Source of the DNA: an uncultured Candidatus Saccharibacteria bacterium | GTDB taxonomy: Bacteria; Patescibacteriota; Saccharimonadia; Saccharimonadales; JAUPVS01 | Assembly (NCBI GenBank): GCA_964627095.1 | Contig: CAZVKH010000001.1 | Coordinates: forward strand, 8,451-72,450 | Reading direction: 5' to 3' | Length of the DNA: 64,000 nt | Shown here: in pieces, positions 8,235 through 60,379 of the stretch | How positions within the stretch are numbered: position 1 is the first letter of the stretch | Layout of the letters: every line of letters starts with the position of its first letter | The notes under the pieces: generated by a model | What the model saw: only the letters and a program-made list of their open reading frames with translations | Databases searched by the model: none | What the model was told of the DNA's origin: nothing | Translations under genes and position numbers: made by a program

Positions 8235-8723
8235 ATGATTTATATACAACACACATTCAAGATGTTTATGGGCAAAGTTTCGGCCTCTATTGTGGTGTTT
8301 TTGTTTGTTGCTGGGATGGTTCTTACGCCGGCTTCTGCTTTGGCAGCCACTCCCGACTATAGTTGCGGGGCTTACGGTGGCAACGACTATAACAGTAACT
8401 GTCCAACCGACCCTAGTACCCCTAGCTCAAGTAGCAGTTCCTCTAGCAGCTCGACTGGCAGTAGTTCTAGCGACGGAGCGGCGGCCGACACGCCGACAAC
8501 TTCGGATACTACAACTACAACCGACGACAGCACCGCTATCGATACAAACGACAAAAGTTCTTCTACCACCAAGACAGCTGCCGAAGAAGAAGCTGGTACG
8601 TCTAATAGCAGCCGCTGGCTTTTGTTCGGCTTCTCGCTCTTTCTGCTCCTGCTAGCTCTATGGCTGATCTTCTTCTTGCTCAAGCGCCGCAAGCGCCAGC
8701 AAGAAGACAAACCAATGTTCTAG
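8235..8723 (+). CDS. secreted Ser/Thr-rich protein with C-terminal membrane anchor
   Basis: Signal-peptide-like N-terminus (...TPASALAA), a run of nine Ser, a Thr/Asp-rich middle, and a C-terminal helix followed by KRRKRQ. Confidence 0.6.
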   Translation: MIYIQHTFKMFMGKVSASIVVFLFVAGMVLTPASALAATPDYSCGAYGGNDYNSNCPTDPSTPSSSSSSSSSSTGSSSSDGAAADTPTTSDTTTTTDDSTAIDTNDKSSSTTKTAAEEEAGTSNSSRWLLFGFSLFLLLLALWLIFFLLKRRKRQQEDKPMF

Positions 8724-8992
8724 ACGGTCGGCTGGCCGGACGTGAGCTGAGGCTGTTCAACGATTCTATCTATGCCTAGGTCCGGCATCATGTACGATAG
8801 TTCGTCTCGTGCAGTCGGTGGTAGATCTGGGCTAACTTGGGCCACAACCGCTAGGCCATCGTCGCTACGGTCGACGACAACTCTTACAGCACTAGATATA
8901 GCAGGCATTAGATCCCAAAGATCACACTCAGCTGTAACACGGGCTTGCTGGAAGGCCTCATACTCTTGATTAGTGATTCTTCGTTTTGACAT
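8720..8992 (-). CDS. hypothetical protein (90 aa)
   Basis: The ORF has its own promoter with leaderless geometry. No recognisable motif. Confidence 0.5.
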   Translation of the reverse strand: MSKRRITNQEYEAFQQARVTAECDLWDLMPAISSAVRVVVDRSDDGLAVVAQVSPDLPPTARDELSYMMPDLGIDRIVEQPQLTSGQPTV

Positions 8993-8999
8993 ACCAAAA

Positions 9000-9035
9000 A
9001 TCTTACAGCTACTCTGTTAGATATGCAAGCATGAG
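9000..9035 (-). promoter_or_regulatory. promoter: CTCATGCTTGCAT (-35 TTGCAT) N17 TAAGAT, then 7 nt to the ATG at 8992
   Basis: Hexamers and spacing read directly on the minus strand. Shares the 12-mer CTCATGCTTGCA with sites at 9541 and 51888. Confidence 0.45.
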
Positions 9036-9061
9036 CGAAATATGTTTTAAGATGTCTGGGC

Positions 9062-9508
9062 TTAGTCGAGTGCTCGGGCTTGCTGGATCTGTTGCATGAG
9101 GTGACATTTGTCGCCTCCCTCCTCAAAAATTTCACACGCCACCGGGCGCTCTTCGTAAATTCCGCAGTGCTCCCAGCCGTCTTGATCGGTTTCAAGATAC
9201 TTGCAGTCATTCAGCAATACGTACCGACCAAGATTTGCCGCCAATGGTTCGGTTGGTCGCTCAGGGTCAACATAGTAAGTTTTCATACCTGTTTCGGGGT
9301 CCCATTCAAGACCACGCGGATAGGGTGCATCCGGGCGAGCCTTTGGCGATGGCAAGGGAACCGTCAGAAACTTGTTACCCGGTCGAGTCATAAGGGCGAC
9401 TTCTTGAAATGTCAGATCGAATATTTCGTTAGCCCGGCAGCAAGCCGCTTGACACTCATTGCAGTCGTCAACTGGTTCAGATGAAATTTGGATTGGAATT
9501 CTGGACAT
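9062..9508 (-). CDS. YkgJ-family (UPF0153) cysteine-cluster protein
   Basis: N-terminal CNECQAACC (CxxCxxxCC) plus a C-terminal C...C..Y..RP..C cluster typical of the family. Confidence 0.7.
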   Translation of the reverse strand: MSRIPIQISSEPVDDCNECQAACCRANEIFDLTFQEVALMTRPGNKFLTVPLPSPKARPDAPYPRGLEWDPETGMKTYYVDPERPTEPLAANLGRYVLLNDCKYLETDQDGWEHCGIYEERPVACEIFEEGGDKCHLMQQIQQARALD

Positions 9509-9516
9509 ATTCTACG

Positions 9517-9552
9517 ATTATTGAGCCATCTACGGTCGTTTGCAAGCATGAG
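9517..9552 (-). promoter_or_regulatory. promoter: CTCATGCTTGCAA (-35 TTGCAA) N17 AATAAT, then 8 nt to the ATG at 9508
   Basis: Read directly. Contains the same 12-mer as 9024..9035 and 51888..51899. Confidence 0.5.
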
Positions 9553-9576
9553 AGAATTGGAAGCGACTGCCTGGCG

Positions 9577-9667
9577 GCACATTTCGTCGCGGGCTCGGTG
9601 CCAGCACCTGCGCGCGCTCCTCATGAGCGCACCTTCGACTACTGTCTGCTGCGCAGCCAAGTCGAAG
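9577..9667. repeat. diverged copy C of the tRNA-adjacent structured intergenic element
   Basis: Shares the blocks GCACAT, GCTCGG-hairpin-CCTGCGC and T.ATGA.CG.ACC with copies A and B. Hairpins are GGTGC/GCACC (9597..9608) and CTTCGACT/AGTCGAAG (9633..9667). Confidence 0.4.
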
Positions 9668-9690
9668 AACCGGCGTCTTGCTCACTGGCA

Positions 9691-9720
9691 AAGAAAAAGA
9701 GCCATCCTTATGGATGACTC
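9691..9720 (-). terminator. rho-independent terminator of tRNA-Pro
   Basis: On the minus strand, GAGTCATCC-ATAA-GGATGGCTC followed by TTTTTCTTT. The single imperfect pair is G.U on minus but C-A on plus. Confidence 0.6.
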
Positions 9721-11614: not shown

Positions 11615-11795
11615 GGAATTCATCCTATTCATCAAATATCCCTACACAGCCGGCGTTATTGCCACCGTCTGGCTTGGTAGCGCCGTTTTAATGGCAATTA
11701 ACCATGACTTGCCAATTGTAGCCATGGTTATCATTAATATGGCTGTCAGCGTCGTTATCGCAGCCGTTGGCTTTACCGGCAGTAAAGAAGTTTAG
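11607..11795 (+). CDS. 62-aa two-helix membrane protein
   Basis: Hydrophobic ORF overlapping the ubiB-like stop by 8 nt. Confidence 0.5.
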   Translation: MLKEFILFIKYPYTAGVIATVWLGSAVLMAINHDLPIVAMVIINMAVSVVIAAVGFTGSKEV

Positions 11796-12595
11796 TCCTC
11801 TATAATCTTTTGAACCGGTGCAACGCTCAATGCTAAGCCGGTACTGGCATCAACCTCGACCACTAAGCCGTTCAACTGGAACGGCCCTTTGGTTTCGAGC
11901 TCATTGCGAGTCCGCAAACCATCACGCCAGCGCGGTATGACTGATTCTAGTGCTATGCCCAGGCTGCCGTGTAAAACTCCACACATACCAACATCACTCT
12001 GGTGGGCCGTTCCCTTGGGCAGAATCATGGCATCGGCCGTTGGAACATGCCAGTGGTCACCAACTACCAAGCTGACTCGGCCGTCTAAGTAATAGCCAAT
12101 TATGACTTTTTCACTACTAAAGTCACCGTGAAAATTAATAATCGTGGCTACTTTTTTATGGTCGGCTGTTTCTTCTAATATTTGGTCGATAACTTTTAAT
12201 GGGTTGTCGCTGGGCTTGTCGGCATCTTTGCCAACAATTGTACCCAGCAAACTAACCAGTAATATGTCACCGTGAGCTGTTTTTAAAAACTTGTAGCGTT
12301 GCCCCGGTGTGCCTTCGGGGTAGTTGGCCGGACGCACGACTGGTTGCTGTGGATCACTAAGATGATCAAATATGTCGTCGTTGTATAGCGTCCAGTTGCC
12401 CCCGGTAAAGCCATCGACACCAGCATGGCGCAAGCGCTCGTAATCGGTTTTATTCAAGCCCTTACCTTCAGTAACATTTTCGGCCTGCGCTATAACTACA
12501 TCAATTGAGTGTTCATGTTTAAGGTCGGTTAGTAGTTTTTCAACGGTCTTTATACCTGGCTCACCCATAATATCGCCGAGATAGAGTATCTTCAT
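11792..12595 (-). CDS. ymdB: YmdB-family metallophosphoesterase (2',3'-cyclic-nucleotide phosphodiesterase-like)
   Basis: MKILYLGDIMGEPG..., GNW and NFHG motifs. Located downstream of rny, as in Firmicutes. Confidence 0.8.
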   Translation of the reverse strand: MKILYLGDIMGEPGIKTVEKLLTDLKHEHSIDVVIAQAENVTEGKGLNKTDYERLRHAGVDGFTGGNWTLYNDDIFDHLSDPQQPVVRPANYPEGTPGQRYKFLKTAHGDILLVSLLGTIVGKDADKPSDNPLKVIDQILEETADHKKVATIINFHGDFSSEKVIIGYYLDGRVSLVVGDHWHVPTADAMILPKGTAHQSDVGMCGVLHGSLGIALESVIPRWRDGLRTRNELETKGPFQLNGLVVEVDASTGLALSVAPVQKIIED

Positions 12596-13205: not shown

Positions 13206-14720
13206 CTACTTAGCGAACTCGACGGCGCGGGTCTCGCGGATTACGTTAACTTTAATGGTACCAGGGTACTGCATACTAGCTTCGATCTTGGTTGCAATGT
13301 CACGGGCTAACTTAATGGCGCTTAGGTCATCGATGTCTTTAGGTCGCACAAACACACGGACTTCACGGCCGGCGCTAATGGCGTAAGATTTCTCGATACC
13401 CTTAAAGCTGTTGGCAACATTCTCGAGATCTTTCATGCGCTCCACAAAGTTCTCGGCGCTAATATTGCGGGCACCGGGTCGTGAGGCGCTGACAGCGTCA
13501 ACCACGCGCACAATCAAAGCTTCGGTAGTGGTGGCTTCAACGTCATCGTGATGCTGTTCGGCAGCCAAGGCGACTGCTTCGGGCGCACCATATTTGCGTA
13601 GCATCTCACCGCTAATGTGATGGTGCTTGCCTTCCATCTTGTGCGTCATGGCCTTGCCTAGGTCATGCACCAATGCAGCGTACTTAGTGGTCTTAACGTC
13701 AGCGTTAAGTTCTTCGGCAATAATACCGGCCATATGCGCCATCTCGGTGCTGTGCTTAAGAACATTCTGGCCGTAACTGGTACGGAATTTAAGTTCACCA
13801 AGGAGCTCCAGAATCTCGCGCGGGATACCTATTACACCAACTTCGCGAGCGGCATCTTCGCCAGCGCGCACCACGTCTTTATGAACATTCTTCTGAGCCT
13901 TCTCGACAACTTCTTCGATACGGCCAGGGTGCACCCGACCATCTTTTAGGAGCATTTCTAAGGCTTGGCGGGCAACTTCGCGACGAACCGGGTCAAAGCT
14001 ACTAAGCACAACGTAACCAGGTGTATCATCAACCATAATGTCGACGCCAGTGGCGCGCTGCAAGGCTTGGATGTTGCGACCTTCCTTACCTATAATGCGG
14101 CCTTTCATTTCTTCATCTTCTAGTTTTAAGCTAGTAATGGTTCGCTCGGCAGTTACTTCGCTGGCCATGCGTTCCATGGCTTGAGCGATAATGCTACCGG
14201 CCTGCTCTTCGGCATCAACCTGGGCTTCCTTCTGCATTTTAGAAATCAAACCGATCAGGTCACCCTTAATATCACGCTCGGTCATTTGCATCAGCTTCTC
14301 GGCCGCTTCGGTCTTGGTCAGCTTGGCAATCTTTTCGAGTTTTTCTTGTTGCTTAACGCGCACCGCTCGAATTTCGTTTTTCAGCTCTTCGGCTTCGTCC
14401 TCGGCCTTACGCAAGTTTTCGTTGCGCTTGTCGAGGGCGTCGAGTTTTTTGTCTAAGGCTTCTTCGCGGTCGAGTAGGCGTTGTTCAATTTGCTTGATTT
14501 CGCGACGGCGTGTCTGTTCATCTTTGCGCGCCTCTTCGGCCACAGCGGCAGCTTCTTCGCGTGCCTTAGCCAGTTCTTTGTTGGCCTCTTTTTTAGCTTG
14601 CGCCAGCTCTTTAGAAGCGGCTTCTTTACTTGCACCAACTCTTTTTTGCGTCACAGCAGTGCTGGCACCAAAGCCTGCGGCTAATCCAGCCACAGCCAAT
14701 ACGATGGTAATTGGATCCAT
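13206..14720 (-). CDS. rny: ribonuclease Y
   Basis: N-terminal anchor, a Lys/Glu-rich coiled coil, a KH region (GRIIGKEGRNI) and an HD domain (HDLGK). Confidence 0.9.
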   Translation of the reverse strand: MDPITIVLAVAGLAAGFGASTAVTQKRVGASKEAASKELAQAKKEANKELAKAREEAAAVAEEARKDEQTRRREIKQIEQRLLDREEALDKKLDALDKRNENLRKAEDEAEELKNEIRAVRVKQQEKLEKIAKLTKTEAAEKLMQMTERDIKGDLIGLISKMQKEAQVDAEEQAGSIIAQAMERMASEVTAERTITSLKLEDEEMKGRIIGKEGRNIQALQRATGVDIMVDDTPGYVVLSSFDPVRREVARQALEMLLKDGRVHPGRIEEVVEKAQKNVHKDVVRAGEDAAREVGVIGIPREILELLGELKFRTSYGQNVLKHSTEMAHMAGIIAEELNADVKTTKYAALVHDLGKAMTHKMEGKHHHISGEMLRKYGAPEAVALAAEQHHDDVEATTTEALIVRVVDAVSASRPGARNISAENFVERMKDLENVANSFKGIEKSYAISAGREVRVFVRPKDIDDLSAIKLARDIATKIEASMQYPGTIKVNVIRETRAVEFAK

Positions 14721-34925: not shown

Positions 34926-34952
34926 TTAGCACTCACAAGTCAAGAGTGCTAA
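34926..34952. promoter_or_regulatory. CIRCE operator TTAGCACTC-N9-GAGTGCTAA (perfect)
   Basis: Exact consensus inverted repeat. On the minus strand the N9 spacer carries TTGACT (-35, 34938..34943), then 17 nt to TATCAT (-10, 34915..34920). Confidence 0.9.
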
Positions 34953-37826: not shown

Positions 37827-39416
37827 CTACTGGATTTTGACCGTACCTAGAACTATCTTTTTGGCCTTATCAACAATTGGCCGAACTTCTTCCAATCCGA
37901 ATATCCAAGAAACCGTGATGTGAACCATTAATGTAACTAATGAAATTGTTCCAAGCTTAACACCAAGCGTCACAAAACCTCGGTCTACTGTGGTTAACGG
38001 CAGTAGCGATATCATCATAAAGGCGGCTACCAGCGAGAATCCAGTGACGGCAATGATTTTGAAAATACCACCCCAGAAGTATTTATCAATAAGTTTTGGA
38101 TCACGCACCACCATCACCACAAATAGCAGCGCTACCTCGGCAGTTGCCACAATCGACTGAGCCAGAGCCAGGCCGGAAACCCCGTAAGAATCGTTGCGAG
38201 CCAGCGTAAAGGCTAGATATATGTTAAGTGCGATGGCGGCAATCGAACCAAGCAGCGGCGTTACCGTGTCCTTCTGAGCATAGAAGTATCGCGATACCAT
38301 GGCATAGATTGATCTAAAGAAGATGGCAACAACCAAGAAGCCAAAAATCAGGGCCACTTGTGGTGCCAGATTACCAAATATCAGACGCGCCAAGTAACCA
38401 CGCGCAAAGTAAGCTACAACGCAGACCGGCATCAGCAGCCAAATCATGGTACGCAAAATGCTGAGGAAGTCTTTACGGAATAGGTCAGGGCGGCCTTGAG
38501 CCAGGCGTTCGTTTAAACGCGGAAAGGCAGCGGTGGCGATTGAACTACCCAGCAGCATGATTGGCACGTTCATAAGGGTAACAGCATAGCTATAGTTACT
38601 AATTGAACCAATCCCTAGGTTATTGGCGCGGTTCAGCTCAACAACAGTATTAACCTGGTCGATACCTTGGTCCAGAGATCTGGGTGGCAGCTGCCGTAAA
38701 ACATGCCGAAAATCATTGTTCTTAAAGAATATTTTGGGAGTGTACTTAAATTTAAGTCCCGCCATACCCATCCAAGAAACGATCAGTTGTAATATACCAC
38801 CAATTACAGCGCCGACGGCCAGGCCAACGATACCCATACTATCTTTAAATATGTAGATACTCGCAATCACCGAAGCGTTATAGATAAGTGGGCCTATTGC
38901 GTAGAAGAAGAAACGACCAAAGGTCTGCTGCACGCTAGTGACGATTCCAGCCAGAGTAAAGAATAATGGGTTCAACGAAATTAGCCGCAGCATTAGTACG
39001 GCTTCGTTCAAGTTTTGCTCAGGTAATTTTGGATAGAGCGCGCTGATGAGTGGCTGGGCAAACACGAACAGAATCACCGCCACGATTACCATGGCGATGG
39101 TTAGTAAGTTTATGATGCTGCTTGTTATTGCCCACAAGTGCTTCTTGTCGCCAGCCTCGAGCCGTTCGGCCAAAACCGGCATAAAGGCCACACCCAAAGC
39201 ACCTGCGGCAATAGTGTAAAAGAAGAAATCTGGAATCTGGAAGGCCGCAAAGAAAGCATCGGTTGAGCCAATTTGTGACGGTGCATTCCAGTTGGCGCTA
39301 ACTAACCGGTTGCGCAAGAAACCAAGTAATTGACCAGCCAGAGTAACCACGAATAGCAATGTGGCGGCACTGCCAAAGCTAACGCGCGAGTTGGCACGGT
39401 TCTTGAGTTTATTCAT
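37827..39416 (-). CDS. murJ: lipid II flippase MurJ (MviN)
   Basis: 14-helix MOP-family protein with MurJ-like N-terminal motifs. TATAAT lies 8 nt upstream of the ATG. Confidence 0.85.
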   Translation of the reverse strand: MNKLKNRANSRVSFGSAATLLFVVTLAGQLLGFLRNRLVSANWNAPSQIGSTDAFFAAFQIPDFFFYTIAAGALGVAFMPVLAERLEAGDKKHLWAITSSIINLLTIAMVIVAVILFVFAQPLISALYPKLPEQNLNEAVLMLRLISLNPLFFTLAGIVTSVQQTFGRFFFYAIGPLIYNASVIASIYIFKDSMGIVGLAVGAVIGGILQLIVSWMGMAGLKFKYTPKIFFKNNDFRHVLRQLPPRSLDQGIDQVNTVVELNRANNLGIGSISNYSYAVTLMNVPIMLLGSSIATAAFPRLNERLAQGRPDLFRKDFLSILRTMIWLLMPVCVVAYFARGYLARLIFGNLAPQVALIFGFLVVAIFFRSIYAMVSRYFYAQKDTVTPLLGSIAAIALNIYLAFTLARNDSYGVSGLALAQSIVATAEVALLFVVMVVRDPKLIDKYFWGGIFKIIAVTGFSLVAAFMMISLLPLTTVDRGFVTLGVKLGTISLVTLMVHITVSWIFGLEEVRPIVDKAKKIVLGTVKIQ

Positions 39417-42313: not shown

Positions 42314-42874
42314 ATGTCAGAAATATTGGCTGGATTCGTTGGCAACCCCAGTTCGGGCAAGTCTCGCTTAACCTCGCATTTGTCTACCACACTGGAGATT
42401 CCTCGAGTTACCGGGTCGGACATTATCAAAGGCTGGGCCTTAGAACGTGGCGTGTCTTTAAACAAACGCCCCGACTTTACAGCTTTTCAGCTTAGAATGC
42501 GCCAGGAACTTGGGCCGAATTGTCTAATGCAAGCGATGCTTACTCATCGCAACGAGGCCGGCCTGATTATCGATGGTCTTAGAAACATACAGGACTACAA
42601 TATGTTTAAAGAAGAGGGCGGACTAACTATCGCCACCTGGTGTCCACTAACCGAAAGGTTTAGACGCGCCCAAGAGGATGGCGATCAAAAAAATGCTATT
42701 TGCTCAATCGAACAATTCCAGCAGGCCGAGGCAGTCGAATATGCCGACGCTAGCCTCGTCGGACAGCACACCGTAACAATAATGCAGATGGCCGATGTCT
42801 CAGTTGACGCCTCCAGCCCCCTTGACAGGGTTCGGGCTGAAGTTGAAGCACTCTTGCTAGCATCTGCCAGCTAG
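42314..42874 (+). CDS. P-loop kinase-like protein (unassigned)
   Basis: GNPSSGKS P-loop. TGcTATAAT (42298..42306) lies 7 nt upstream of the ATG. Confidence 0.45.
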   Translation: MSEILAGFVGNPSSGKSRLTSHLSTTLEIPRVTGSDIIKGWALERGVSLNKRPDFTAFQLRMRQELGPNCLMQAMLTHRNEAGLIIDGLRNIQDYNMFKEEGGLTIATWCPLTERFRRAQEDGDQKNAICSIEQFQQAEAVEYADASLVGQHTVTIMQMADVSVDASSPLDRVRAEVEALLLASAS

Positions 42875-46390: not shown

Positions 46391-46834
46391 ATGAAAACAA
46401 TCACTATTTGTTCCAGCGCTGCTTTCTACCGTGACGTCATTAAGATTAAAGAAGAGCTGGAAAAGCTTGGTGTACACGTAATAGTGCCCAAGACTGCCCT
46501 GCGCATGCAAAAGAATAATGACTACGAAGTCAGCCACTACAAAACCTGGATGGCCGATGCCAACGACTACCACAAAAAAGCCGAACTAATGATGAGCCAC
46601 TTCGAGGAAATCGATAAAGGTGGTGCTATCTTGGTAGTTAACAACACTAAGCACGGAGTAGAAAACTACATTGGCGGCAACGTTCTAATGGAAATGGCCT
46701 TGGCCTTCTTTCAGAAAAAACCAATCTTTATTCTTCATGACATACCCCATGAATCACCTCTTATCGAAGAAGTCTTGGGGGTTTTACCAATCACACTAAA
46801 GGGCGATATCAAAAGCCTCGTTAAGCAGCTTTAA
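46391..46834 (+). CDS. hypothetical Rossmann-like protein (possibly nucleoside 2-deoxyribosyltransferase-like)
   Basis: MKTITICSSAAF... then GG.ILVVN pattern. Weak assignment. Confidence 0.35.
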   Translation: MKTITICSSAAFYRDVIKIKEELEKLGVHVIVPKTALRMQKNNDYEVSHYKTWMADANDYHKKAELMMSHFEEIDKGGAILVVNNTKHGVENYIGGNVLMEMALAFFQKKPIFILHDIPHESPLIEEVLGVLPITLKGDIKSLVKQL

Positions 46835-48585: not shown

Positions 48586-49128
48586 CTACTTAAGCTTATT
48601 AAGATGGCGCAAGCCTAATAGCACCAACAGCCCCATAACACCGGCTCCAATAAAGGCGGCCACAGCGGCGTAGTAGGCGATCATACCAAAGGTCCAGTAA
48701 GCGTAGCCGTCACCCAACAAAATTCCACGCAGGGTTTCACCTTGGAACAAGCTCTGCTTTTGAGCTTGCAACTTAGCGTTAGTAGGGTCCTTCATAGCTT
48801 CGGCACTAACTTCGGCGTAGGTTTTACCACCAGCAATATCATCAAGATGCTTACCAATGTAGTCATTGGCGTATGCCTTAGCCTTAGGTCCGTCATCCAC
48901 CTGTTGTCCAGCGTACTTTTGCAAAGTTGGGTACTTGGCCGGATCCAGTGCTGGGCTACCCTTGGCCGGGAAGTAAATTTTTTGAGCCGAAAGTTCGTTG
49001 CGCACGTTGGTAGTAGCGAAGTTGTAGGCGTAGAAAGATAGACTACCGACGGCCAGTAGTACGGCTGTCATAGCAGCGCCCAGTAGTATAAATACTTTAT
49101 CAATTGTTTTACGATCTGATTTTGCCAT
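48586..49128 (-). CDS. hypothetical bitopic membrane protein
   Basis: N- and C-terminal transmembrane helices flank a soluble domain. Confidence 0.5.
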   Translation of the reverse strand: MAKSDRKTIDKVFILLGAAMTAVLLAVGSLSFYAYNFATTNVRNELSAQKIYFPAKGSPALDPAKYPTLQKYAGQQVDDGPKAKAYANDYIGKHLDDIAGGKTYAEVSAEAMKDPTNAKLQAQKQSLFQGETLRGILLGDGYAYWTFGMIAYYAAVAAFIGAGVMGLLVLLGLRHLNKLK

Positions 49129-49188
49129 GTTTATTCCTTTTTACTGCCCTACCTTAGCATTCTTAGCGCTTACGTTTTGTGATTTGAA

Positions 49189-49398
49189 TCACAGTTCGGG
49201 CTCGGGCGTATCCTTCCTATGCAGTATCAAGTAGAGTATTGGCAATAAGCCGGCGGTATTTAGAACTAGCATACACATGAACCAGCCAGTTTGATAACGC
49301 CGGGCTGACCGCCACAGACCGATTCCTTTCCATACGACATCCCAAAGTGCCACTGCAACTATTACCATTGCCCAGCCTAGCGATAATGAATTGTCCAT
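49189..49398 (-). CDS. small two-helix membrane protein (DUF5652-like)
   Basis: WDVVWKGIGLWRSAR...WF pattern. Confidence 0.5.
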   Translation of the reverse strand: MDNSLSLGWAMVIVAVALWDVVWKGIGLWRSARRYQTGWFMCMLVLNTAGLLPILYLILHRKDTPEPEL

Positions 49399-49422: not shown

Positions 49423-49815
49423 TTATACAATCCGGGCTAACTTGCGCAGCTCTTTGCGGTGTGAAAAACGAGGATTGTCGGTAATAACTTCGCGGGTCGG
49501 GATTATCCGCCCGCGCAACTTGTGGTCGTTCGGCAAACCACTCAGTAACAAATAGCCCTGCCAGTAACGGCCGCCAACTTCTAGTTCCAGGTGGGTCAAA
49601 TCAGAGGCATAGGCTTCATCTTCGACTTCGTACAATCGATAGCGCCCCAAGCCAAGCACACAGTCTGACTTATGAGCGTTATGTGAAGTTACTAAAATTT
49701 CACCGATTCCCTTAGCGTCAACCCAGGCAAATACCTTTTTGTCTAAATATAAAACTTTGGTGTGATGCTGGGTTTCGATAAGCTTATAGATGCCGTTAGC
49801 GCGTAACCGTATCAT
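49423..49815 (-). CDS. hypothetical protein (130 aa)
   Basis: ORF overlapping the upstream gene by 20 nt. No motif recognised. Confidence 0.45.
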   Translation of the reverse strand: MIRLRANGIYKLIETQHHTKVLYLDKKVFAWVDAKGIGEILVTSHNAHKSDCVLGLGRYRLYEVEDEAYASDLTHLELEVGGRYWQGYLLLSGLPNDHKLRGRIIPTREVITDNPRFSHRKELRKLARIV

Positions 49816-50320
49816 GATGTCCCTCGTGGTTTAACTGCTCGAGGCAACGTAGTTCGATGTATTCCGAGAAGTTGTTGGCACAACGCTCATTAAAAGTTCG
49901 GATCTTAAAGTCTTTAACACGGGTATGTAAGACAACCGTACTACCCCAACCAGCATGCGAGTAATTAATACCGCTCACAACGTCATAGGTAACCTCATCT
50001 TCGTTGACGAACAGTGGTTTTTTATCAAGGTAGATGATTCGCCTATCGGTCGCTACCAGGATCACAAAACCATCTAAGTTCTGGCCATAAACAAGGCCGC
50101 CAATATGCTCGTCGGCATGAACAATACTGGGCAAGTAACGGCTGGCGCCGTGTAGCAAACCAACCCGCGTCATACCTAGATCTTTAAGCTCTTGTATAAT
50201 CCGCCGACGGTGGTTCGGCATTTCTTTATTGCTGACATGTAGGTTGCGGTTATCCTTGGTGGCTAAAGCTGTGTACATAATGGCCGTCCTCCTGCTTACA
50301 GTAAAGCAGTTGCCAAGCAC
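49796..50320 (-). CDS. YokE-like bacterial PH-domain protein
   Basis: ...LPSIVHADEHIGGLVYG....LVATDRRIIYLD... pattern. Start uncertain. Confidence 0.45.
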   Translation of the reverse strand: MLGNCFTVSRRTAIMYTALATKDNRNLHVSNKEMPNHRRRIIQELKDLGMTRVGLLHGASRYLPSIVHADEHIGGLVYGQNLDGFVILVATDRRIIYLDKKPLFVNEDEVTYDVVSGINYSHAGWGSTVVLHTRVKDFKIRTFNERCANNFSEYIELRCLEQLNHEGHHDTVTR

Positions 50321-50360
50321 CGTTACAGTGACACTAGTCAGTTGTTGCGTGTGATACCAA

Positions 50361-51005
50361 TCACAGCTTGAGTTTTTGCTCGATGGCCGGCAAATCTGTC
50401 ACGATAATTGCCTGGCTATTCACCTCTACCAAGTTAAGGTCTTTGGCTTTGTGCAATTCTCGGCTGACGGTTTCGCGTGATAAACCAGTGCGCGCCGCCA
50501 GGTCACCTTCTTTAAGTGGTAATTGGTAGGTGCTAGTTTTGACTTTTAGGCCAAGCCGATGGCACTCAATAACCAGCTCGTACAGCAAGCGCGTTTGGGC
50601 GCTGCCCGACATCAACTGAACTAGACGCCCCAGTAGACCATCGGTGCCTTGATATAAACGCGCCAGTAGGTCGTACATAACATCCGGGTTGTCCTTTACA
50701 AACTTAACTGCAGCCGTGGCCGGGACAATATGTAGTTCGGTGTCTATTTCGGTTTTAAAGAAATACTTGTTGGGTGTTTTGTTTATAGCCCAAGACATTG
50801 GGAAAAAAGCTGGAGGTTTAAAAACATTAACAATTACTTCTTCGCCGCGGTAAGAAACATCGTACTGGCGAACCCGGCCTTTGGTGACATAAAAAATATG
50901 CTCCGGCTCTTCACCGGCAAACACCAAAATCTGGCCTTTTGGGTAGGTGCGTTGCGGGTAGGTTCTAAAAAACTGGTCAATTTTACTGGAAACTGCGGAA
51001 GTCAT
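50361..51005 (-). CDS. Crp/Fnr-family transcription regulator
   Basis: cNMP-binding beta-roll followed by an HTH (LAARTGLSRETVSRELHK). Confidence 0.8.
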   Translation of the reverse strand: MTSAVSSKIDQFFRTYPQRTYPKGQILVFAGEEPEHIFYVTKGRVRQYDVSYRGEEVIVNVFKPPAFFPMSWAINKTPNKYFFKTEIDTELHIVPATAAVKFVKDNPDVMYDLLARLYQGTDGLLGRLVQLMSGSAQTRLLYELVIECHRLGLKVKTSTYQLPLKEGDLAARTGLSRETVSRELHKAKDLNLVEVNSQAIIVTDLPAIEQKLKL

Positions 51006-51038
51006 ACTGTCTTCCTCCTACTCTGACTATAGAACTGT

Positions 51039-51854
51039 TTAGGCTGTCTGGCAATCAGGAGTGGCTGTTGCCAACCAGGCAGCTAATGACGTATTAAACG
51101 CTTCTTGCTTGATAGCCTTAGTATCTTCGCTGTAATTATCGAAGTCTGTTGGCTGTACTATGGCAAAAGCACGATTAATATACGCCGACCGGTCTGCAAG
51201 ATAACGCTTAACCGGAACATACTCGTCAGACCTCTCCATGAGAGCCACCACGTGGCCGCCGACTACGTCAGCAACAAGCCAGCGAAGCCCCAGCTCACAG
51301 TCGGTTGCCGTGTCGTTAACAACATGCTCGGAAGCCCGTATCGCTGTTCTTAGGTAGCCGACCCGCTCAACTGTGTTGAAGATTCTCCCCAATTTAGTGT
51401 GGTCATCAAAGACCACTTCTTCGGCGGCCTCAAAGATTAAGTCGGCCAAATGAGGCTGTTGTTGGGCGACATCTTCTATAATCTTGCGCAAATGGCCACG
51501 CTCTTGCGCCTCGTCTTGGATTGTTTTGTTGCTGTAAGTAATATCCCCAACAATCACTTCGGCCCAGTCATGGATAATGGCAGCAGCTTCTAGTACCTGC
51601 TCTTCGTGTGGCGTCATTAGCCCAGGCTGATCGCGACGCAAATTACGGTTCATAGCCCGGGCAATTCCTCGCGTCAGCGGCATGTGCAAAAGGTTGTTAA
51701 CGTCTGCGCCAAGTAGCTCTTGCCAACGTTCGTTAGTTACCCCTTCGGGCATGTAACGTTCGTAACGAACACGGGTCGCCAGCTCCTGTCCAAGATCAGT
51801 GGCGGCAAAGGCGTTGTGGATGTCCATGATGTTGGGTTGAATTTCGGTGCTCAT
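51039..51854 (-). CDS. HD-superfamily phosphohydrolase
   Basis: H...HD...D pattern (PHEE, IIHDWAE, VGDI). Start taken at MSTEIQ (51854). Confidence 0.6.
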   Translation of the reverse strand: MSTEIQPNIMDIHNAFAATDLGQELATRVRYERYMPEGVTNERWQELLGADVNNLLHMPLTRGIARAMNRNLRRDQPGLMTPHEEQVLEAAAIIHDWAEVIVGDITYSNKTIQDEAQERGHLRKIIEDVAQQQPHLADLIFEAAEEVVFDDHTKLGRIFNTVERVGYLRTAIRASEHVVNDTATDCELGLRWLVADVVGGHVVALMERSDEYVPVKRYLADRSAYINRAFAIVQPTDFDNYSEDTKAIKQEAFNTSLAAWLATATPDCQTA

Positions 51855-51863
51855 ACTACTTTC

Positions 51864-51899
51864 ATAGTCCTGCTTGGCTATTAATATTGCAAGCATGAG
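51864..51899 (-). promoter_or_regulatory. promoter: CTCATGCTTGCAA (-35 TTGCAA) N17 GACTAT, then 9 nt to the ATG at 51854
   Basis: Read directly. Third copy of the 12-mer. Confidence 0.4.
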
Positions 51900-52407
51900 C
51901 ATAATAGTTTTAGGCTATACTTATAGGGTGAATAAAAAACTTTTGTTGGCCATTGCCGTAATAATCGTCGTCATAGGTGCTGGTGTTATTTACTTGCTAA
52001 CCAGTAGTGAGCCAGAAAAAGCCATGGAAACAGTTACTGATCAGTCGACAACCACGTCTACTAGCCCGACCACGCCCCCTCCAGTTACTGACAATTCAAA
52101 ACCCGGCGCCTACATTGACTACACCAGCTCGGCAATTTCTCAGACTTCGGGCACAAAACTACTGTTCTTTCATGCGCCGTGGTGCCCCCAATGTCGCGAT
52201 CTCGAAGACAGCATTAAGCAGGATGGCGTGCCAGACAGTGTGACAATTATTAAGGTCGACTACGACAGCAACCAGGCCCTCCGCCAAAAGTATGGCGTAA
52301 CCCTACAGACGACCGTGGTTAAAATTGATGATAACGGTAACTTGATAGATAAGTTTGTCGCCTATCAAGAGCCTAGCCTGGCGGCTGTAAAGCAACGACT
52401 GTTGTAA
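51895..52407 (+). CDS. membrane-anchored thioredoxin-fold protein
   Basis: WCPQC active site after a transmembrane helix and a Thr/Pro linker. Start uncertain (ATG 51895 or GTG 51928). Confidence 0.7.
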   Translation: MSIIVLGYTYRVNKKLLLAIAVIIVVIGAGVIYLLTSSEPEKAMETVTDQSTTTSTSPTTPPPVTDNSKPGAYIDYTSSAISQTSGTKLLFFHAPWCPQCRDLEDSIKQDGVPDSVTIIKVDYDSNQALRQKYGVTLQTTVVKIDDNGNLIDKFVAYQEPSLAAVKQRLL

Positions 52408-53181: not shown

Positions 53182-53715
53182 ATGTCAACTTTTGAACAAG
53201 AACGTCGTTCCCAGATGATCGATATTGCTACCTACCGGCAGATTAAGGAAATCGGCAAAGGCTTGGTGACTTTGTCGGGCGTGGCGTTTTCGGAAAAGCC
53301 CGACTATGACCTTGACCTTACTATAAGCCGCATCACCGACGAAACTTTTGGCGTATTCCCACAAATGGGTTACAAAGTTCGCGTGGCAAGCAAACAAACA
53401 CCGGAGGCAAACCACGAAAACCTATTAATTACCGTCAAAGGTTTTGGAGTAGTCGATAGCGAAGGTGAGCTACTCTACAGACGCAAAGTCGGGATAACAG
53501 TTATCGACCAAGAAGTTAAATATTCGTGGGTAGACCTTTTACTACCGCGTGATGGCAAAACACCAGAGAGAGCTCAGCCACAGAGTCAACTAGAGGCTGG
53601 CATCCGCGAACACTTTGAAGCATGGGAGCATGAAATCAGTGGACGACAATTTTACCTCGACCCGGAAAGCGCCCAAATGCTGATGGCCGAAATTCAGGAA
53701 ATCGCCGAGCTCTAA
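53182..53715 (+). CDS. hypothetical protein (177 aa)
   Basis: ORF with TATAAT 9 nt upstream of the ATG. No motif recognised. Confidence 0.5.
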   Translation: MSTFEQERRSQMIDIATYRQIKEIGKGLVTLSGVAFSEKPDYDLDLTISRITDETFGVFPQMGYKVRVASKQTPEANHENLLITVKGFGVVDSEGELLYRRKVGITVIDQEVKYSWVDLLLPRDGKTPERAQPQSQLEAGIREHFEAWEHEISGRQFYLDPESAQMLMAEIQEIAEL

Positions 53716-54024: not shown

Positions 54025-54726
54025 ATGACCGATATGCTCGCTCCTTCAGCCGAAGCCGAAAAATTGCCAACAGATGACCCGACAACCATACTAGCACTTG
54101 AAGCACGCGACTTATTACTCGCCGCCAGCCAAGCCGAACCGGGCAGCCCGGATGAGGTAGCCGCCCTAGAGGAAGCCAATAGTCGCTTTAGCGAGCTGGT
54201 TAGCGAAACCCAGGAATTCCTTACCAAATTTGCTCTGAGCCGCCCCCACCCCAGGCATTTTGATGTGCAAGAAGTAGTCCAGGAAACCTACGCCCGAGCC
54301 TATAAGGGTTTACATAATTTTAGGGGTGACGCCAAGTTTTCTACGTGGCTATTTTACGTTTTGCGCAGCTGTACTGATAACTACTGGAGACGCGAGGCAC
54401 GTCACAACAATCAGCCCCTACCCGAAGAAGACGGTTCAGATCCATCCTTGGTTGGTAGTATTGCCGTGGTGTCATCATTAGATACTGGCGAGGTCGACAG
54501 CTTTTTGGACTACAGTAGCCTTTCGCCGGAACTAGAAGCAATGCTGGCCACTTTAAGTCCCAAGCAACAACAAGCTATTCGTATGCATGACGTAATGGGA
54601 CAAACCACTAAAGAATGTGCCGCGCAACTAGGTGTTAGTGAAATTAGTTTTAAGATGAACGTACACCGGGCTCGCCATAACCTACGCCGCGAATTCCCCG
54701 ATGCCAGAAACTGGTTAGAAGAATAA
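54025..54726 (+). CDS. sigma-70-family (group 4/ECF-like) sigma factor with an acidic ~70-aa N-terminal extension
   Basis: Region 2 (ETYARAYKGLHNFRGDAKFSTWLFYV) and region 4 (QQQAIRMHDVMGQTTKECAAQLGVSEISFKMNVHRARHNLR). Confidence 0.8.
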   Translation: MTDMLAPSAEAEKLPTDDPTTILALEARDLLLAASQAEPGSPDEVAALEEANSRFSELVSETQEFLTKFALSRPHPRHFDVQEVVQETYARAYKGLHNFRGDAKFSTWLFYVLRSCTDNYWRREARHNNQPLPEEDGSDPSLVGSIAVVSSLDTGEVDSFLDYSSLSPELEAMLATLSPKQQQAIRMHDVMGQTTKECAAQLGVSEISFKMNVHRARHNLRREFPDARNWLEE

Positions 54727-57291: not shown

Positions 57292-57326
57292 TCATGCTTG
57301 AGCTTACACCGTTTAACCTCTATACT
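57292..57326 (+). promoter_or_regulatory. promoter TCATGCTTGAGC (-35 TTGAGC) N17 TATACT
   Basis: Read directly. Shares TCATGCTTG with the 12-mer promoters. Followed by a ~30-nt leader with GAGAGGG before the ATG at 57359. Confidence 0.5.
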
Positions 57327-57358: not shown

Positions 57359-58408
57359 ATGGCTAGACTACCAGTTCCGGGCGGCGATACGGGTACATGG
57401 GGCACTGTACTCAATGACTTCTTAGGGGTAGCACATAATAGCGACGGCACGCTGAAGTCAATCACTTCGGCTACCGTGTCAGATTTTTCCGAAGCAGCCA
57501 TCGACGCTGCCGGTAGCGCCATGACAGCAGGTCCGGGCGTTTCTGTAACTGTCGACGATAACGCCAACACCATCACTGTTGGTAACGTCCGAACTACTAA
57601 TGTGCAAACTGCCAGCTACACACTGGCCTTAACCGATGCATTTAAGACCGTCCAGTTTGATGCTGCCGGTAATGTTTTCCCTACTCTTACCATCCCGACC
57701 AACGACGTTATACCATTTGCAATTGGAACGGTAGTTTATGTCACTCACTTAGCTACCGCCCGCTATACCACTGTAGCCGCTTCTGGAGGTGTTACACTGC
57801 AAGCTCCTAGCGGTCTTTCGGTTGGGCCAAAGCAAACCCTAACTCTGCAAAAAACCGCCAGCGATACCTGGATTGTTACCAGCGCCATCAGTGCCAGTGA
57901 CCCAGGCGTACTTCACGAAGTTGGCGCCTTGCCACCGGGTTACTCGCATCTTGGTACAGTTTCAACACTTAGCCTAAATGGTCAGATTTGGGTTCCTTTC
58001 GAAATCCAGTCGCCAATGGCGATGCCGGCAATAGTCATAAGGGTCACCACTGCCGTACCCGGATCACAGTTTAACCTGAGTATCTATCAGTGTGATACTT
58101 CTTGGACGGCTGCCTCATTTATTGGCACCATAATCAACCAGACGGCTGTTACCGGACTAAATACTATTACCCCACCGGCCACTACACTGCCACCAGGGCG
58201 TTATAGTATAAAGCTACGTTATTCTGACCTTTCGGCTATCGATATCCGAGCCATTAACTGTGCTCCGCCTTTCGTGGATCCCAGCATTGGTGCCACCGCT
58301 GGTGTCCAAAAACTAACCGGCTCATCTGGTAGTAACGACTGGACCGCTGCCACCTTAGCGACCGGAGGCTTTCAGCTCCCTTTCTTCTTCAGCCAACGGG
58401 CTCTGTAG
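57359..58408 (+). CDS. hypothetical protein with phage tail-fibre-like N-terminus
   Basis: MARLPVPGGDTGTWGTVLNDFLGVAHNSDGTLK resembles the N-terminal motif I recall from actinophage minor-tail/fibre proteins. The rest is beta-rich and Thr/Ala/Gly-rich. Confidence 0.45.
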   Translation: MARLPVPGGDTGTWGTVLNDFLGVAHNSDGTLKSITSATVSDFSEAAIDAAGSAMTAGPGVSVTVDDNANTITVGNVRTTNVQTASYTLALTDAFKTVQFDAAGNVFPTLTIPTNDVIPFAIGTVVYVTHLATARYTTVAASGGVTLQAPSGLSVGPKQTLTLQKTASDTWIVTSAISASDPGVLHEVGALPPGYSHLGTVSTLSLNGQIWVPFEIQSPMAMPAIVIRVTTAVPGSQFNLSIYQCDTSWTAASFIGTIINQTAVTGLNTITPPATTLPPGRYSIKLRYSDLSAIDIRAINCAPPFVDPSIGATAGVQKLTGSSGSNDWTAATLATGGFQLPFFFSQRAL

Positions 58409-58443: not shown

Positions 58444-59388
58444 ATGCAGCTCGTTGGCTCGAATCCATTCGCGCTTACGCAACCTTCGGGTGCGCGTGGT
58501 CTTCATACGCTTATGCCGTTTGGCAGTAAGCTTTACGCCGGTTTTGGTGACTGGATTTCGAATACCGGTCCGGTTGAAATCACTTCTTGGAATGGCTCAT
58601 CTTGGACTAGCGAATTTACTGCCAAAACGGAAAGTATAGTTCGCTACCGAGTTTTGAACGGTAAGCTGTTTGTACCTTATATCGACCCACGCACCAGTTA
58701 TCACAACGACTTTGCCGTTCTGGAATCTGGTGGCTGGACCGAATATCGAACTGGATCAGGGCCAAACGAAGCCACCTTACACACCTTTGATATGACATAC
58801 TTTGGCGGTCAATACTGGGGGGCCGGTGCCGCCACCGATGACAATAAGGCGTCGGTTTACCGCAGCGCCGACTATACATCCGGTGGATCCTGGACTCGTT
58901 CCAACTTTGGCACACCGAACGGCGAAGATCGTATCTATACTATCTGGCAAGCCGATGGCAATTTGTACTGCCGCTTCTCGACCGGGCCTGGTGTCGTTTT
59001 CTTATGGAATGGCTCGGCGTGGGTAGACTCCGGCCTATCCAACACCAACGCACCCGGCTGGAACACCGAAACTTTTGGTACCAAAACTGCCTACACCAAT
59101 GCCTTTAACGGCGGTAGTGCCGACAAAGTCCGCACCTTCGACAGCACTAATGGCGTCCAAACCTGGGATAACGCCGGCAACACCTATGCGCTGTGTGTCA
59201 GTGGTAGTTACGTATACGCCCTGGCCGACGCCGGTACGGCCTTTAAGCAAGTTCTCCGCTCCACCGACCTCGTAACTTGGACACCAATCGCCCTGCCACC
59301 GTCTGACTGCGAAAGCATAGCTATTTGGAATAATACCGTCTACGTTGGTACCACTAGCGGCGCGCTATACAACTATGCGCTTAGTTAG
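58444..59388 (+). CDS. beta-propeller-like protein with degenerate Asp-box (BNR) repeats
   Basis: Recurrent Trp-containing blades: STDLVTW, STNGVQTW, SGGSWTRS, NGSAWVDSG. Confidence 0.45.
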   Translation: MQLVGSNPFALTQPSGARGLHTLMPFGSKLYAGFGDWISNTGPVEITSWNGSSWTSEFTAKTESIVRYRVLNGKLFVPYIDPRTSYHNDFAVLESGGWTEYRTGSGPNEATLHTFDMTYFGGQYWGAGAATDDNKASVYRSADYTSGGSWTRSNFGTPNGEDRIYTIWQADGNLYCRFSTGPGVVFLWNGSAWVDSGLSNTNAPGWNTETFGTKTAYTNAFNGGSADKVRTFDSTNGVQTWDNAGNTYALCVSGSYVYALADAGTAFKQVLRSTDLVTWTPIALPPSDCESIAIWNNTVYVGTTSGALYNYALS

Positions 59389-59950
59389 CTCGGGCTTTTT
59401 GCAAGACCTTGGCCCACCACACCAAGTTGTCCATCAGCTTCTCAGGGCTAGAGCCTCGCAAATTTCCTTCGCTAAAGTTGCCTTCTTCGTCAAAAGCACC
59501 CCAAACGTCAATCACCTTGACTGAAGTACCTAGTAGCGGCACCATCCCAATTTGGGCAACCACCGGCACAAGATGCTCTAGTGTAGCCGAGCCACCTAGG
59601 GCACCGTAGCCAACAAAGGCCACCGGCTTACGGGCCCACTCGTTATACAAGTAATCTATAGCGTTCTTTAGGCTGGCTGGATAGCCATGGTTATACTCGG
59701 GTGTAACAAAAACATAGCCATCGAATGAATCAATAAGTTTTGACCACTTCTTGGTATGCTCTCTTTGATATTGTTGCATCGAAGCCAAATTTGATTCATC
59801 TAGAAATGGCAGATTAACATCAGCCAGGTCGATTAGCGTAAACTTAACATCCGGCGTGTCAGAAACTTGATCAACAAACCAGTCGGCAATTTTACGACCG
59901 ACACGGGAAGGGCGGGTAGAGCCAACGATAACGGCAATTTTTAAAGTCAT
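59381..59950 (-). CDS. NADPH-dependent FMN reductase family protein
   Basis: IAVIVGSTRPSRVGRKIADW and TPEYNHGYP motifs. Confidence 0.8.
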   Translation of the reverse strand: MTLKIAVIVGSTRPSRVGRKIADWFVDQVSDTPDVKFTLIDLADVNLPFLDESNLASMQQYQREHTKKWSKLIDSFDGYVFVTPEYNHGYPASLKNAIDYLYNEWARKPVAFVGYGALGGSATLEHLVPVVAQIGMVPLLGTSVKVIDVWGAFDEEGNFSEGNLRGSSPEKLMDNLVWWAKVLQKARAN

Positions 59951-60046
59951 GGGTGTGTAACCTTTCGTTAATTTTCTATATCGCTATAAATTGTATAGTA
60001 ACTTACTATACTTTGTAAAGCCTGAAGTGTGCGTTATACTGCTAGC

Positions 60047-60379
60047 ATGAATCCTGCCATCGAAAAACATCCTGGCTGTATCGAAAATACTTTAACCATC
60101 CTCGGCGACAAATGGACTGCCTTAATTGTGCGTGACCTCTCTTCTGCCAAAGCCCGCTTTGGTGACCTCGAGACCTCTTTGGCTGGTATCAGCCCGCGTA
60201 CCCTGAGCCAACGCCTCGACAAACTAGAAAAAGAAGGCATTGTAATTAGACGCCTCTACTGCGAGCGACCACCACGTTACACCTACGAACTAACTAGTAA
60301 GGGGCTGGAACTTCAAGAAATTCTAGTCAAGATGTCCGAGTGGGGTGACCGCCATAACTGCCAAAAGGGTATCGCGTAG
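60047..60379 (+). CDS. HxlR-family transcription regulator
   Basis: C.IE..L.ILGDKWT.LI.RDL and RF.DL......IS.R.LSQRL..LE..G.V.R. TATACT lies 6 nt upstream of the ATG at 60047. Confidence 0.8.
   Translation: MNPAIEKHPGCIENTLTILGDKWTALIVRDLSSAKARFGDLETSLAGISPRTLSQRLDKLEKEGIVIRRLYCERPPRYTYELTSKGLELQEILVKMSEWGDRHNCQKGIA

Follow-up and report, generated by a model that had tools for sequence, protein, structure and literature searches.

We describe a 17-nt sequence box that covers the -35 region of three weak predicted promoters in a 64-kb stretch of Saccharibacteria DNA (hereafter the window) and that probably marks a small set of co-regulated genes. The core of the box is a 12-mer, CTCATGCTTGCA in its minus-strand reading, that was originally predicted to define a small regulon, and this is still the best reading because of where the box lies and because it is conserved. 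That the box is the site of a class-II-type activator working with the housekeeping holoenzyme has, judged from the sequence data, about an even chance of being correct. As the promoter box of a regulon, it is an ordinary kind of element and involves no new mechanism.

Almost nothing is known about transcription control in Saccharibacteria or other Patescibacteria, and our full-text literature search returned no description of leaderless transcription or promoter motifs in Saccharibacteria, nor of the box. The box predicts a co-regulated set of mostly unannotated genes, is usable as a probe to pull down its regulator, and, as a candidate regulated promoter, could serve the genetic tools now under development for Saccharibacteria.

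Three copies of the box precede minus-strand genes

A recount of the sequence returned three exact copies of the 12-mer TGCAAGCATGAG on the plus strand (9024-9035, 9541-9552 and 51888-51899) and no others in the 64-kb window, as had been claimed. In the minus-strand reading, all three copies supply TTGCA(T/A), each followed by a 17-nt spacer and a weak -10 hexamer that ends 7, 8 or 9 nt before the ATG at 8992, 9508 or 51854 (copies A, B and C, respectively). The geometry thus bears out the earlier placement of the 12-mer at the -35 position of three predicted promoter-like arrangements. In all three cases, the 12-mer lies 43-45 nt 5′ of the start codon and shares its strand with the gene that it precedes, and the full box spans positions -49 to -33 (A), -50 to -34 (B) and -51 to -35 (C) relative to the ATG. 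The features are as follows, with matrix scores in bits.

9025..9041, minus strand: box copy A, ATTTCGCTCATGCTTGC, 28.3 bits; its 3′ TTGC opens the -35 hexamer TTGCAT (9028-9023)
8990..9005, minus strand: -10 hexamer TAAGAT (9005-9000), 7 nt, and the ATG (8992-8990) of a 90-aa gene; the geometry implies a leaderless start
8720-8992, minus strand: gene downstream of copy A, 90 aa, without a Pfam or NCBIfam match
9542..9558, minus strand: box copy B, AATTCTCTCATGCTTGC, 23.4 bits; -35 hexamer TTGCAA (9545-9540)
9506..9522, minus strand: -10 hexamer AATAAT (9522-9517), 8 nt, and the ATG (9508-9506) of a YkgJ-like gene
9062-9508, minus strand: CxxCxxCC (YkgJ-like) gene downstream of copy B
51889..51905, minus strand: box copy C, ATTATGCTCATGCTTGC, 27.7 bits; -35 hexamer TTGCAA (51892-51887)
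51852..51869, minus strand: -10 hexamer GACTAT (51869-51864), 9 nt, and the ATG (51854-51852) of an HD gene
49796..51854, minus strand: putative operon downstream of copy C, encoding an HD phosphohydrolase, a Crp/Fnr-family regulator and a PH-domain protein
51039-51854, minus strand: HD phosphohydrolase, with a profile weakly related to HDDC2 / YGL101W / OxsA-type HD proteins
50361-51005, minus strand: Crp/Fnr-family regulator, cNMP-binding
49796-50320, minus strand: bacterial PH-domain protein

The start of the HD gene at ATG 51854 gives a protein of 271 aa, the same length as the database protein P0005, which is 100% identical to it over 99% of the query. A coding explanation of the 12-mer was rejected: the copy-A counterpart of the frame at copy C runs into a stop, and the longest ORF at copy C begins within the box (ATG 51902), but P0005 and the orthologues use the downstream ATG.

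Copy C sits in the 73-bp gap (51855-51927) between the HD gene and a divergent gene for a membrane-anchored thioredoxin, which starts with a GTG at 51928, 73 bp from the HD start, and is followed by DsbD. The same box occupies positions -39 to -23 of a predicted thioredoxin promoter with the -10 hexamer TATACT at 51916-51921. Because copy C overlaps this promoter, one bound factor could affect both the HD and the thioredoxin genes.

The copy number is compatible with chance, the placement is not

The original prediction put the expected number of chance copies at 0.01, which holds for one 12-mer chosen beforehand but ignores the roughly 8 million possible 12-mers. When 200 windows were simulated with a second-order Markov model, 83% held some 12-mer in at least three non-overlapping copies, with a mean of 2.0. 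Because such triples are frequent in simulated windows, the copy count alone is not significant. Matches to the 12-mer with up to two mismatches were also at chance level (7 in the window versus 6.5 expected). A second triple, ACTTCTTCGATA, located at 13909 and 37255 on the plus strand and at 46762 on the minus strand, lies within genes throughout; it is probably due to chance and can be used as an internal control for the statistics. For the box, chance is excluded by its position before genes and by its conservation in other genomes.

Alignment of 16 sites gave the 17-nt consensus WTTTTG-CTYATGS-TTGC, with an information content of 1.2-2 bits over G-CTYATGS-TTGC and background level directly 3′ of TTGC. 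The box is asymmetric and has no dyad. We built a matrix from 15 sites, which at 12 bits yields approximately one match per shuffled window, and scanned approximately 0.49 Mb of related sequence. All matches of at least 20 bits in these 0.49 Mb were in sense orientation and upstream of an ORF, and six sites outside the training set also precede ORFs (L005, L009:12635, L010, L131:8568, L133 and L155). Because the scanned sequence was mostly picked around HD genes, the size and content of the regulon are poorly sampled. A REP- or MITE-like repeat does not fit the 0.49 Mb: the block is just 17 nt long, has no dyad, and its matches of at least 20 bits all stand before ORFs. As a negative control, viral contigs were searched for the box together with a -10 hexamer; 118 stretches matched, with a single match in each of the 80 listed; because none of these 80 is a multi-hit contig, the viral scan is consistent with chance.

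It is very unlikely that no dedicated factor is involved and that the box is a favoured -35 context of the housekeeping polymerase combined with recent promoter duplication, or chance. The frequency of 12-mer triples in simulated windows would fit this account, as would TTGCAA, an acceptable -35 hexamer, and copies A and C share approximately 11 of 15 additional upstream bases, so part of their identity may stem from promoter duplication. However, the box is kept before non-homologous genes, with unalignable flanks, in genomes whose HD proteins are 44-56% identical, and TTG itself is no more informative than the 7-8 bases on its 5′ side. The other promoters of the window that have a -35 use TTGACA or TTGACT without the box context, and chance cannot put every copy 41-45 nt (55-65 nt with a leader) before a start codon. 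The comparative data already largely refute this account.

The box is kept in related genomes

The motif was also found before orthologous genes in relatives: the HD orthologue carries it in at least 11 genomes, and the YkgJ-like gene or its operon in two more. Beyond these, it stands before small unannotated genes that vary from genome to genome. The 11 sequences with an upstream box at the HD orthologue (L007, L009, L010, L129, L130, L131, L132, L133, L139, L144 and L155) were fetched from assemblies and metagenomes, and the encoded proteins are 44-78% identical. In L007, the box of copy C is kept and the intergenic region is 90% identical, compared to 75% for the coding sequence.

At the YkgJ locus, both boxes are intact as GCTCATGCTTGCA in L003, whose YkgJ protein is 86% identical. 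In this relative, identity is 94% over the 69-nt region of promoter A, compared to 82% in the YkgJ gene and 70% in the 90-aa gene that the promoter would drive. Promoter B differs at 5 of 17 spacer positions and in the upstream flank, but its box is the same. L004, with a YkgJ protein of 43% identity, has GCTCATGCTTG ahead of a methyltransferase-YkgJ operon. In L009, five boxes occur within 6 kb, each ahead of a different unannotated gene; apart from the HD gene, these box-driven genes have no homology to those of the window, and no Pfam domains were found in them.

Across the relatives, the box is thus kept while flanks, spacers and downstream genes diverge. This agrees with the earlier proposal that the conserved bases 5′ of the -35 hexamer exceed what RNA polymerase needs. 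Sites within a genome tend to have the same variable base, with G at three sites of L009 and C at every window site, and this agreement fits one co-evolving reader. The box was found in one clade of Saccharibacteria, and no regulator gene was found as a conserved neighbour of the HD gene in this clade.

Two differences at the YkgJ locus were observed in passing. Between box promoter B and YkgJ, L003 has an extra 137-aa gene (186-599) with a Shine-Dalgarno leader; its counterpart in the window (9509-9522) lacks this gene, and YkgJ starts 8 nt past the -10 hexamer. A gene-sized indel would thus have switched a leadered operon to a leaderless gene, or the reverse. The YkgJ protein of L005 has 58% identity; its gene follows a CIRCE-like element, TTGGCACTC-N9-GAGTGCTAA (77-103), and the box variant GCTCAAGCTTGC would drive the neighbouring 114-aa gene. 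The CIRCE-like element hints, speculatively, at stress control of the YkgJ homologue in this relative.

Outside the box clade, HD orthologues of a sister clade lack the box (L134-L138, L140-L142, L148-L150, L152, L156 and L163). Instead, a palindrome such as CCAGGGGTATAAAGTACCCTGG (TAGGGTA-N6-TACCCTA) lies approximately 60-90 nt upstream, and at least five of these loci have a divergent gene for a winged-helix and NUDIX protein, an NrtR-like layout. The box in one clade and the palindrome in the other point to regulatory turnover at one gene. Because the HD gene has a box in one clade and a palindrome with a winged-helix-NUDIX gene in the sister clade, it would be tightly regulated throughout the group; regulation by nucleotide-derived signals is plausible but speculative.

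Box promoters combine a weak core with predicted leaderless starts

We compared 21 non-redundant box promoters. The last four bases of the box open the -35 hexamer, the spacer is 16-17 nt long and the register between the box and the -10 hexamer is constant. In 16 of the 21, the start codon follows 6-10 nt past the -10 hexamer; this predicts leaderless transcripts and thereby places the centre of the box at approximately -41 to -43. Both the box promoters and the leaderless starts are predictions from geometry.

The -10 hexamers of the box promoters mostly keep A2 and T6, which is the pattern of housekeeping sigma factors, whereas T1 is present in 13 of 21 and is otherwise often G or A. With mostly A2 and T6, and a distance of 16-17 nt from a TTG-containing -35 (17 nt in the three window copies), the box promoters conform to a sigma-70 arrangement, for which 16-18 nt is expected, and a scan for the TTGACA/TATAAT consensus (at least 9 of 12 positions) accepts copy B (TTGCAA-17-AATAAT) but not A or C. 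An extended -10 (TGn) was present in 2 of 21 box promoters, compared to 8 of 17 other leaderless promoters of the window (p = 0.02); a comparison of -10 scores between these groups is biased, the control promoters having been selected for a good -10. The rarity of TGn at box promoters favours dependence on a dedicated factor.

Leaderless starts appear to be common in the window. Of 72 genes, 19 have a -10-like hexamer whose last base lies 5-10 nt upstream of the start codon, with no Shine-Dalgarno sequence; apparently leaderless examples are the genes at 11792-12595 (minus strand), 37827-39416 (minus strand), 42314-42874 (plus strand) and 53182-53715 (plus strand). Such promoters often have an extended TGnTATAAT and no recognisable -35, whereas the three 12-mer promoters differ in having a -35, a weak -10 and no TGn.

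We propose that a dedicated sequence-specific protein reads the box and, at these intrinsically weak promoters, assists initiation by RNA polymerase that carries a housekeeping-type sigma factor. In this model, the box would serve as an activator site of the class II type, overlapping the -35 region, and would define a small regulon, possibly tied to nucleotide or stress signalling. The factor would be a protein other than the adjacent Crp, and its gene probably lies in another part of the genome.

The TTG of the -35 hexamer is part of the box, so the pattern of conservation would look no different if a repressor bound there or if a sigma factor directly recognised an extended -35. We consider it quite unlikely that the box is an operator at which a repressor blocks the -35 region until a signal releases it. 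Overlap with the -35 is a common operator position, a protein bound at copy C could shut both the HD and the divergent thioredoxin promoter, and the palindrome at the HD gene of the sister clade, beside the divergent winged-helix-NUDIX gene, is a typical repressor layout. However, repressed promoters are usually strong, whereas the box promoters have a weak -10 and lack TGn; most repressor operators are dyads, whereas the box is asymmetric; and occlusion does not need a constant register with the -10 hexamer.

Regulators encoded in the window

The original prediction named two possible readers encoded in the window, the Crp protein (50361-51005) and a sigma factor (54025-54726), and neither gained support. 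For the Crp protein, the box has no CRP/FNR dyad, and Crp-type palindromes were found nearby instead.

50350..50365, no strand: exact CRP-type palindrome TGTGATACCAATCACA (TGTGAT-N4-ATCACA), upstream of the bPH gene
49178..49193, no strand: exact CRP-type palindrome TGTGATTTGAATCACA (TGTGAT-N4-ATCACA), centred at approximately -41 from the TGnTAAGGT -10 of gene 48586-49128

Both palindromes (49178-49193 and 50350-50365) lie in the cluster downstream of the Crp gene and are kept in L007 (4743-4758 and 5937-5952). The neighbouring Crp protein probably binds them, and a second small regulon would result. Because two exact palindromes of its own lie nearby, Crp is unlikely to bind the box.

The sigma factor is of the ECF type. 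Most ECF promoters are marked by a -35 with AAC and a -10 with CGT. Among the 21 box promoters, neither AAC in the -35 nor a conserved CGT in the -10 was found, and the bases 3′ of TTGC are not conserved. The region upstream of the sigma gene at 54025 contains the leaderless promoter TGGTAGAGT, with no box and no matrix match nearby; because this promoter lacks the box, the usual ECF autoregulation is absent.

An unlikely reader, though still one worth weighing, is an alternative sigma factor such as the ECF-type factor at 54025-54726, which would recognise the box as an extended -35 and direct polymerase to the gene set. The rigid position of the box relative to the -10 in 21 of 21 promoters would fit such a factor, as would base 4 of the -35 hexamer, which is a conserved C in contrast to the TTGACA or TTGACT of other window promoters, and the frequent G or A at base 1 of the -10. 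The ECF sigma stays a minority candidate because, alone among the regulators of the window, it has no site that could be assigned to it, whereas HrcA, Crp and HxlR have plausible ones. On the other hand, the -10 hexamers mostly have A2 and T6 at 16-17-nt spacers, as for housekeeping sigma factors, the AAC and CGT signature is absent, the promoter of the sigma gene itself has no box, and no anti-sigma gene was seen adjoining.

A more specific version is doubtful: the box would be the element of a Saccharibacteria-specific initiation factor, either an unusual ECF-like or alternative sigma or an activator that appropriates sigma region 4, switching on a leaderless nucleotide-signalling or stress regulon, perhaps in the epibiotic life cycle. 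The genes of such a regulon would be those for the HD nucleotidase-like hydrolase, Crp, the Cys-cluster protein and small lineage-specific proteins.

The sites assignable to the other two regulators were noted as follows. A perfect CIRCE element, TTAGCACTC-N9-GAGTGCTAA (34926-34952, minus strand), overlaps the TTGACT -35 of the hrcA-grpE-dnaK operon. The 9-1-9 palindrome GTATAGTAA-C-TTACTATAC at 59993-60011 lies between the divergent genes for an HxlR-family protein (60029-60379) and an NADPH-dependent FMN reductase (59381-59950), and is likely the operator of the HxlR protein.

Comparison with known promoter systems

The closest parallels to an activator site at the box are the CRP/FNR class II sites (-41.5) and the pho box of PhoB, which likewise overlap or replace the -35, accompany a weak core promoter and keep a fixed register. 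Relative to the ATG, the box overlaps the -35, is centred near -41.5 and stands at a weak core, and as with class II sites, one motif is common to a small set of unrelated genes. The box has TTGC twice at a distance of 10 bp (TTGCTCATGCTTGC), which loosely resembles the direct repeats of PhoB/OmpR-type regulators, but the bases between the two TTGCs are as conserved as the TTGCs themselves and there is no repeat-spacer-repeat structure. It differs from CRP/FNR sites in having no TGTGA-N6-TCACA or TTGAT-N4-ATCAA dyad, and from class II systems in general in that most box transcripts would be leaderless.

Sigma-32 (TCTCNCCCTTGAA) and sigma-28 have extended -35 consensus sequences. Like these, the box is a conserved, regulon-defining block of 13-17 nt with (C)TTG at its -35 end, and copy B (TCTCATGCTTGCAA) has a superficial likeness to the -35 region of sigma-32 promoters. 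However, the -10 of the box promoters is a degenerate TATAAT-like hexamer, unlike the CCCCATNT or GCCGATAA of sigma-32/sigma-28-type promoters, and the only extra sigma factor seen in the window is of the ECF type, the signature of which is absent. The T4 MotA box is a TGCTT centred at -30. Both the MotA box and the sigma-32 -35 were rejected as the identity of the box because of a misfit in spacing or in the -10. A sigma-54 promoter, which has GG at -24 and GC at -12 (TGGCAC-N5-TTGCW) and starts transcription about 12 nt further on, was likewise rejected: TTGCTC-N4-TTGC in the box has no GG and is one base short, and the -10-like hexamer and start codon follow approximately 23 and 35 nt later, respectively.

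In Bacillus subtilis, an element of approximately 4 nt at about -44, upstream of the -35, is read by the complex of Spx and the alpha-CTD. The box shares with this system conserved bases directly 5′ of the -35 in housekeeping-type promoters, and copy C adjoins the thioredoxin-DsbD pair. It differs in that 11-14 bases are conserved and no Spx/ArsC-family gene was identified in the window. By this analogy, a link between the box and redox control is speculative.

The leaderless promoters of Actinobacteria and Deinococcus-Thermus have the -10 hexamer directly before the start codon, as do 16 of the 21 box promoters. Here, the predicted leaderless trait is genome-wide rather than specific to the box, which would add a regulatory layer to it.

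The proposed fourth site

A fourth promoter had been proposed to share part of the motif.

57292..57326, plus strand: fourth site TCATGCTTG, then TTGAGC-N17-TATACT (57298-57326); sigma-70-like, with a Shine-Dalgarno-containing leader

Its sequence and hexamers are as described, but its membership in the box family did not hold up. The site scores less than 12 bits against the box matrix, and in L167, an 88%-identical relative, it reads TCACGCTTGAGC, where the CATG core is lost and the -35, spacer and -10 are kept. We take the fourth site for an ordinary promoter that by chance looks partly like the box.

The gene behind it (57359-58408, plus strand) encodes a 349-aa protein, previously called tail-fibre-like, whose full-length homologues are confined to close relatives. 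A part covering approximately 10% of its length recurs at 76-85% identity in many Saccharimonadales proteins that are otherwise dissimilar, including some annotated as tail fibre. This suggests a short module that variable proteins have in common.

Genomic context

The window encodes a ClpB-like ATPase, a P-type ATPase, RNase Y, DnaK, LepA, MurJ, FtsH, G6PD and ComEC, and eight tRNA genes are scattered over it. A phage origin of the window was rejected given this chromosomal gene content and the lack of a phage DNA match; the window is a segment of a Saccharibacteria chromosome. The named homologues of the HD protein belong to Candidatus Saccharimonadales or Saccharibacteria, and among the genome fragments retrieved, a Patescibacteria MAG is the closest. 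In this source lineage, the HD gene is predicted to be co-transcribed with the Crp and PH-domain genes.

Beside copy B, a G+C-rich stretch (about 9560-9692, in minus-strand reading) lies between the tRNA-Pro terminator (9699-9720) and the box, and is 96% identical to L003, compared to 82% for the adjacent gene. An Rfam search of this conserved stretch matched no family. It folds better than shuffled sequences (z = -3.7), with a C-G to U-G change in one stem, and may be an undescribed small RNA from either strand.
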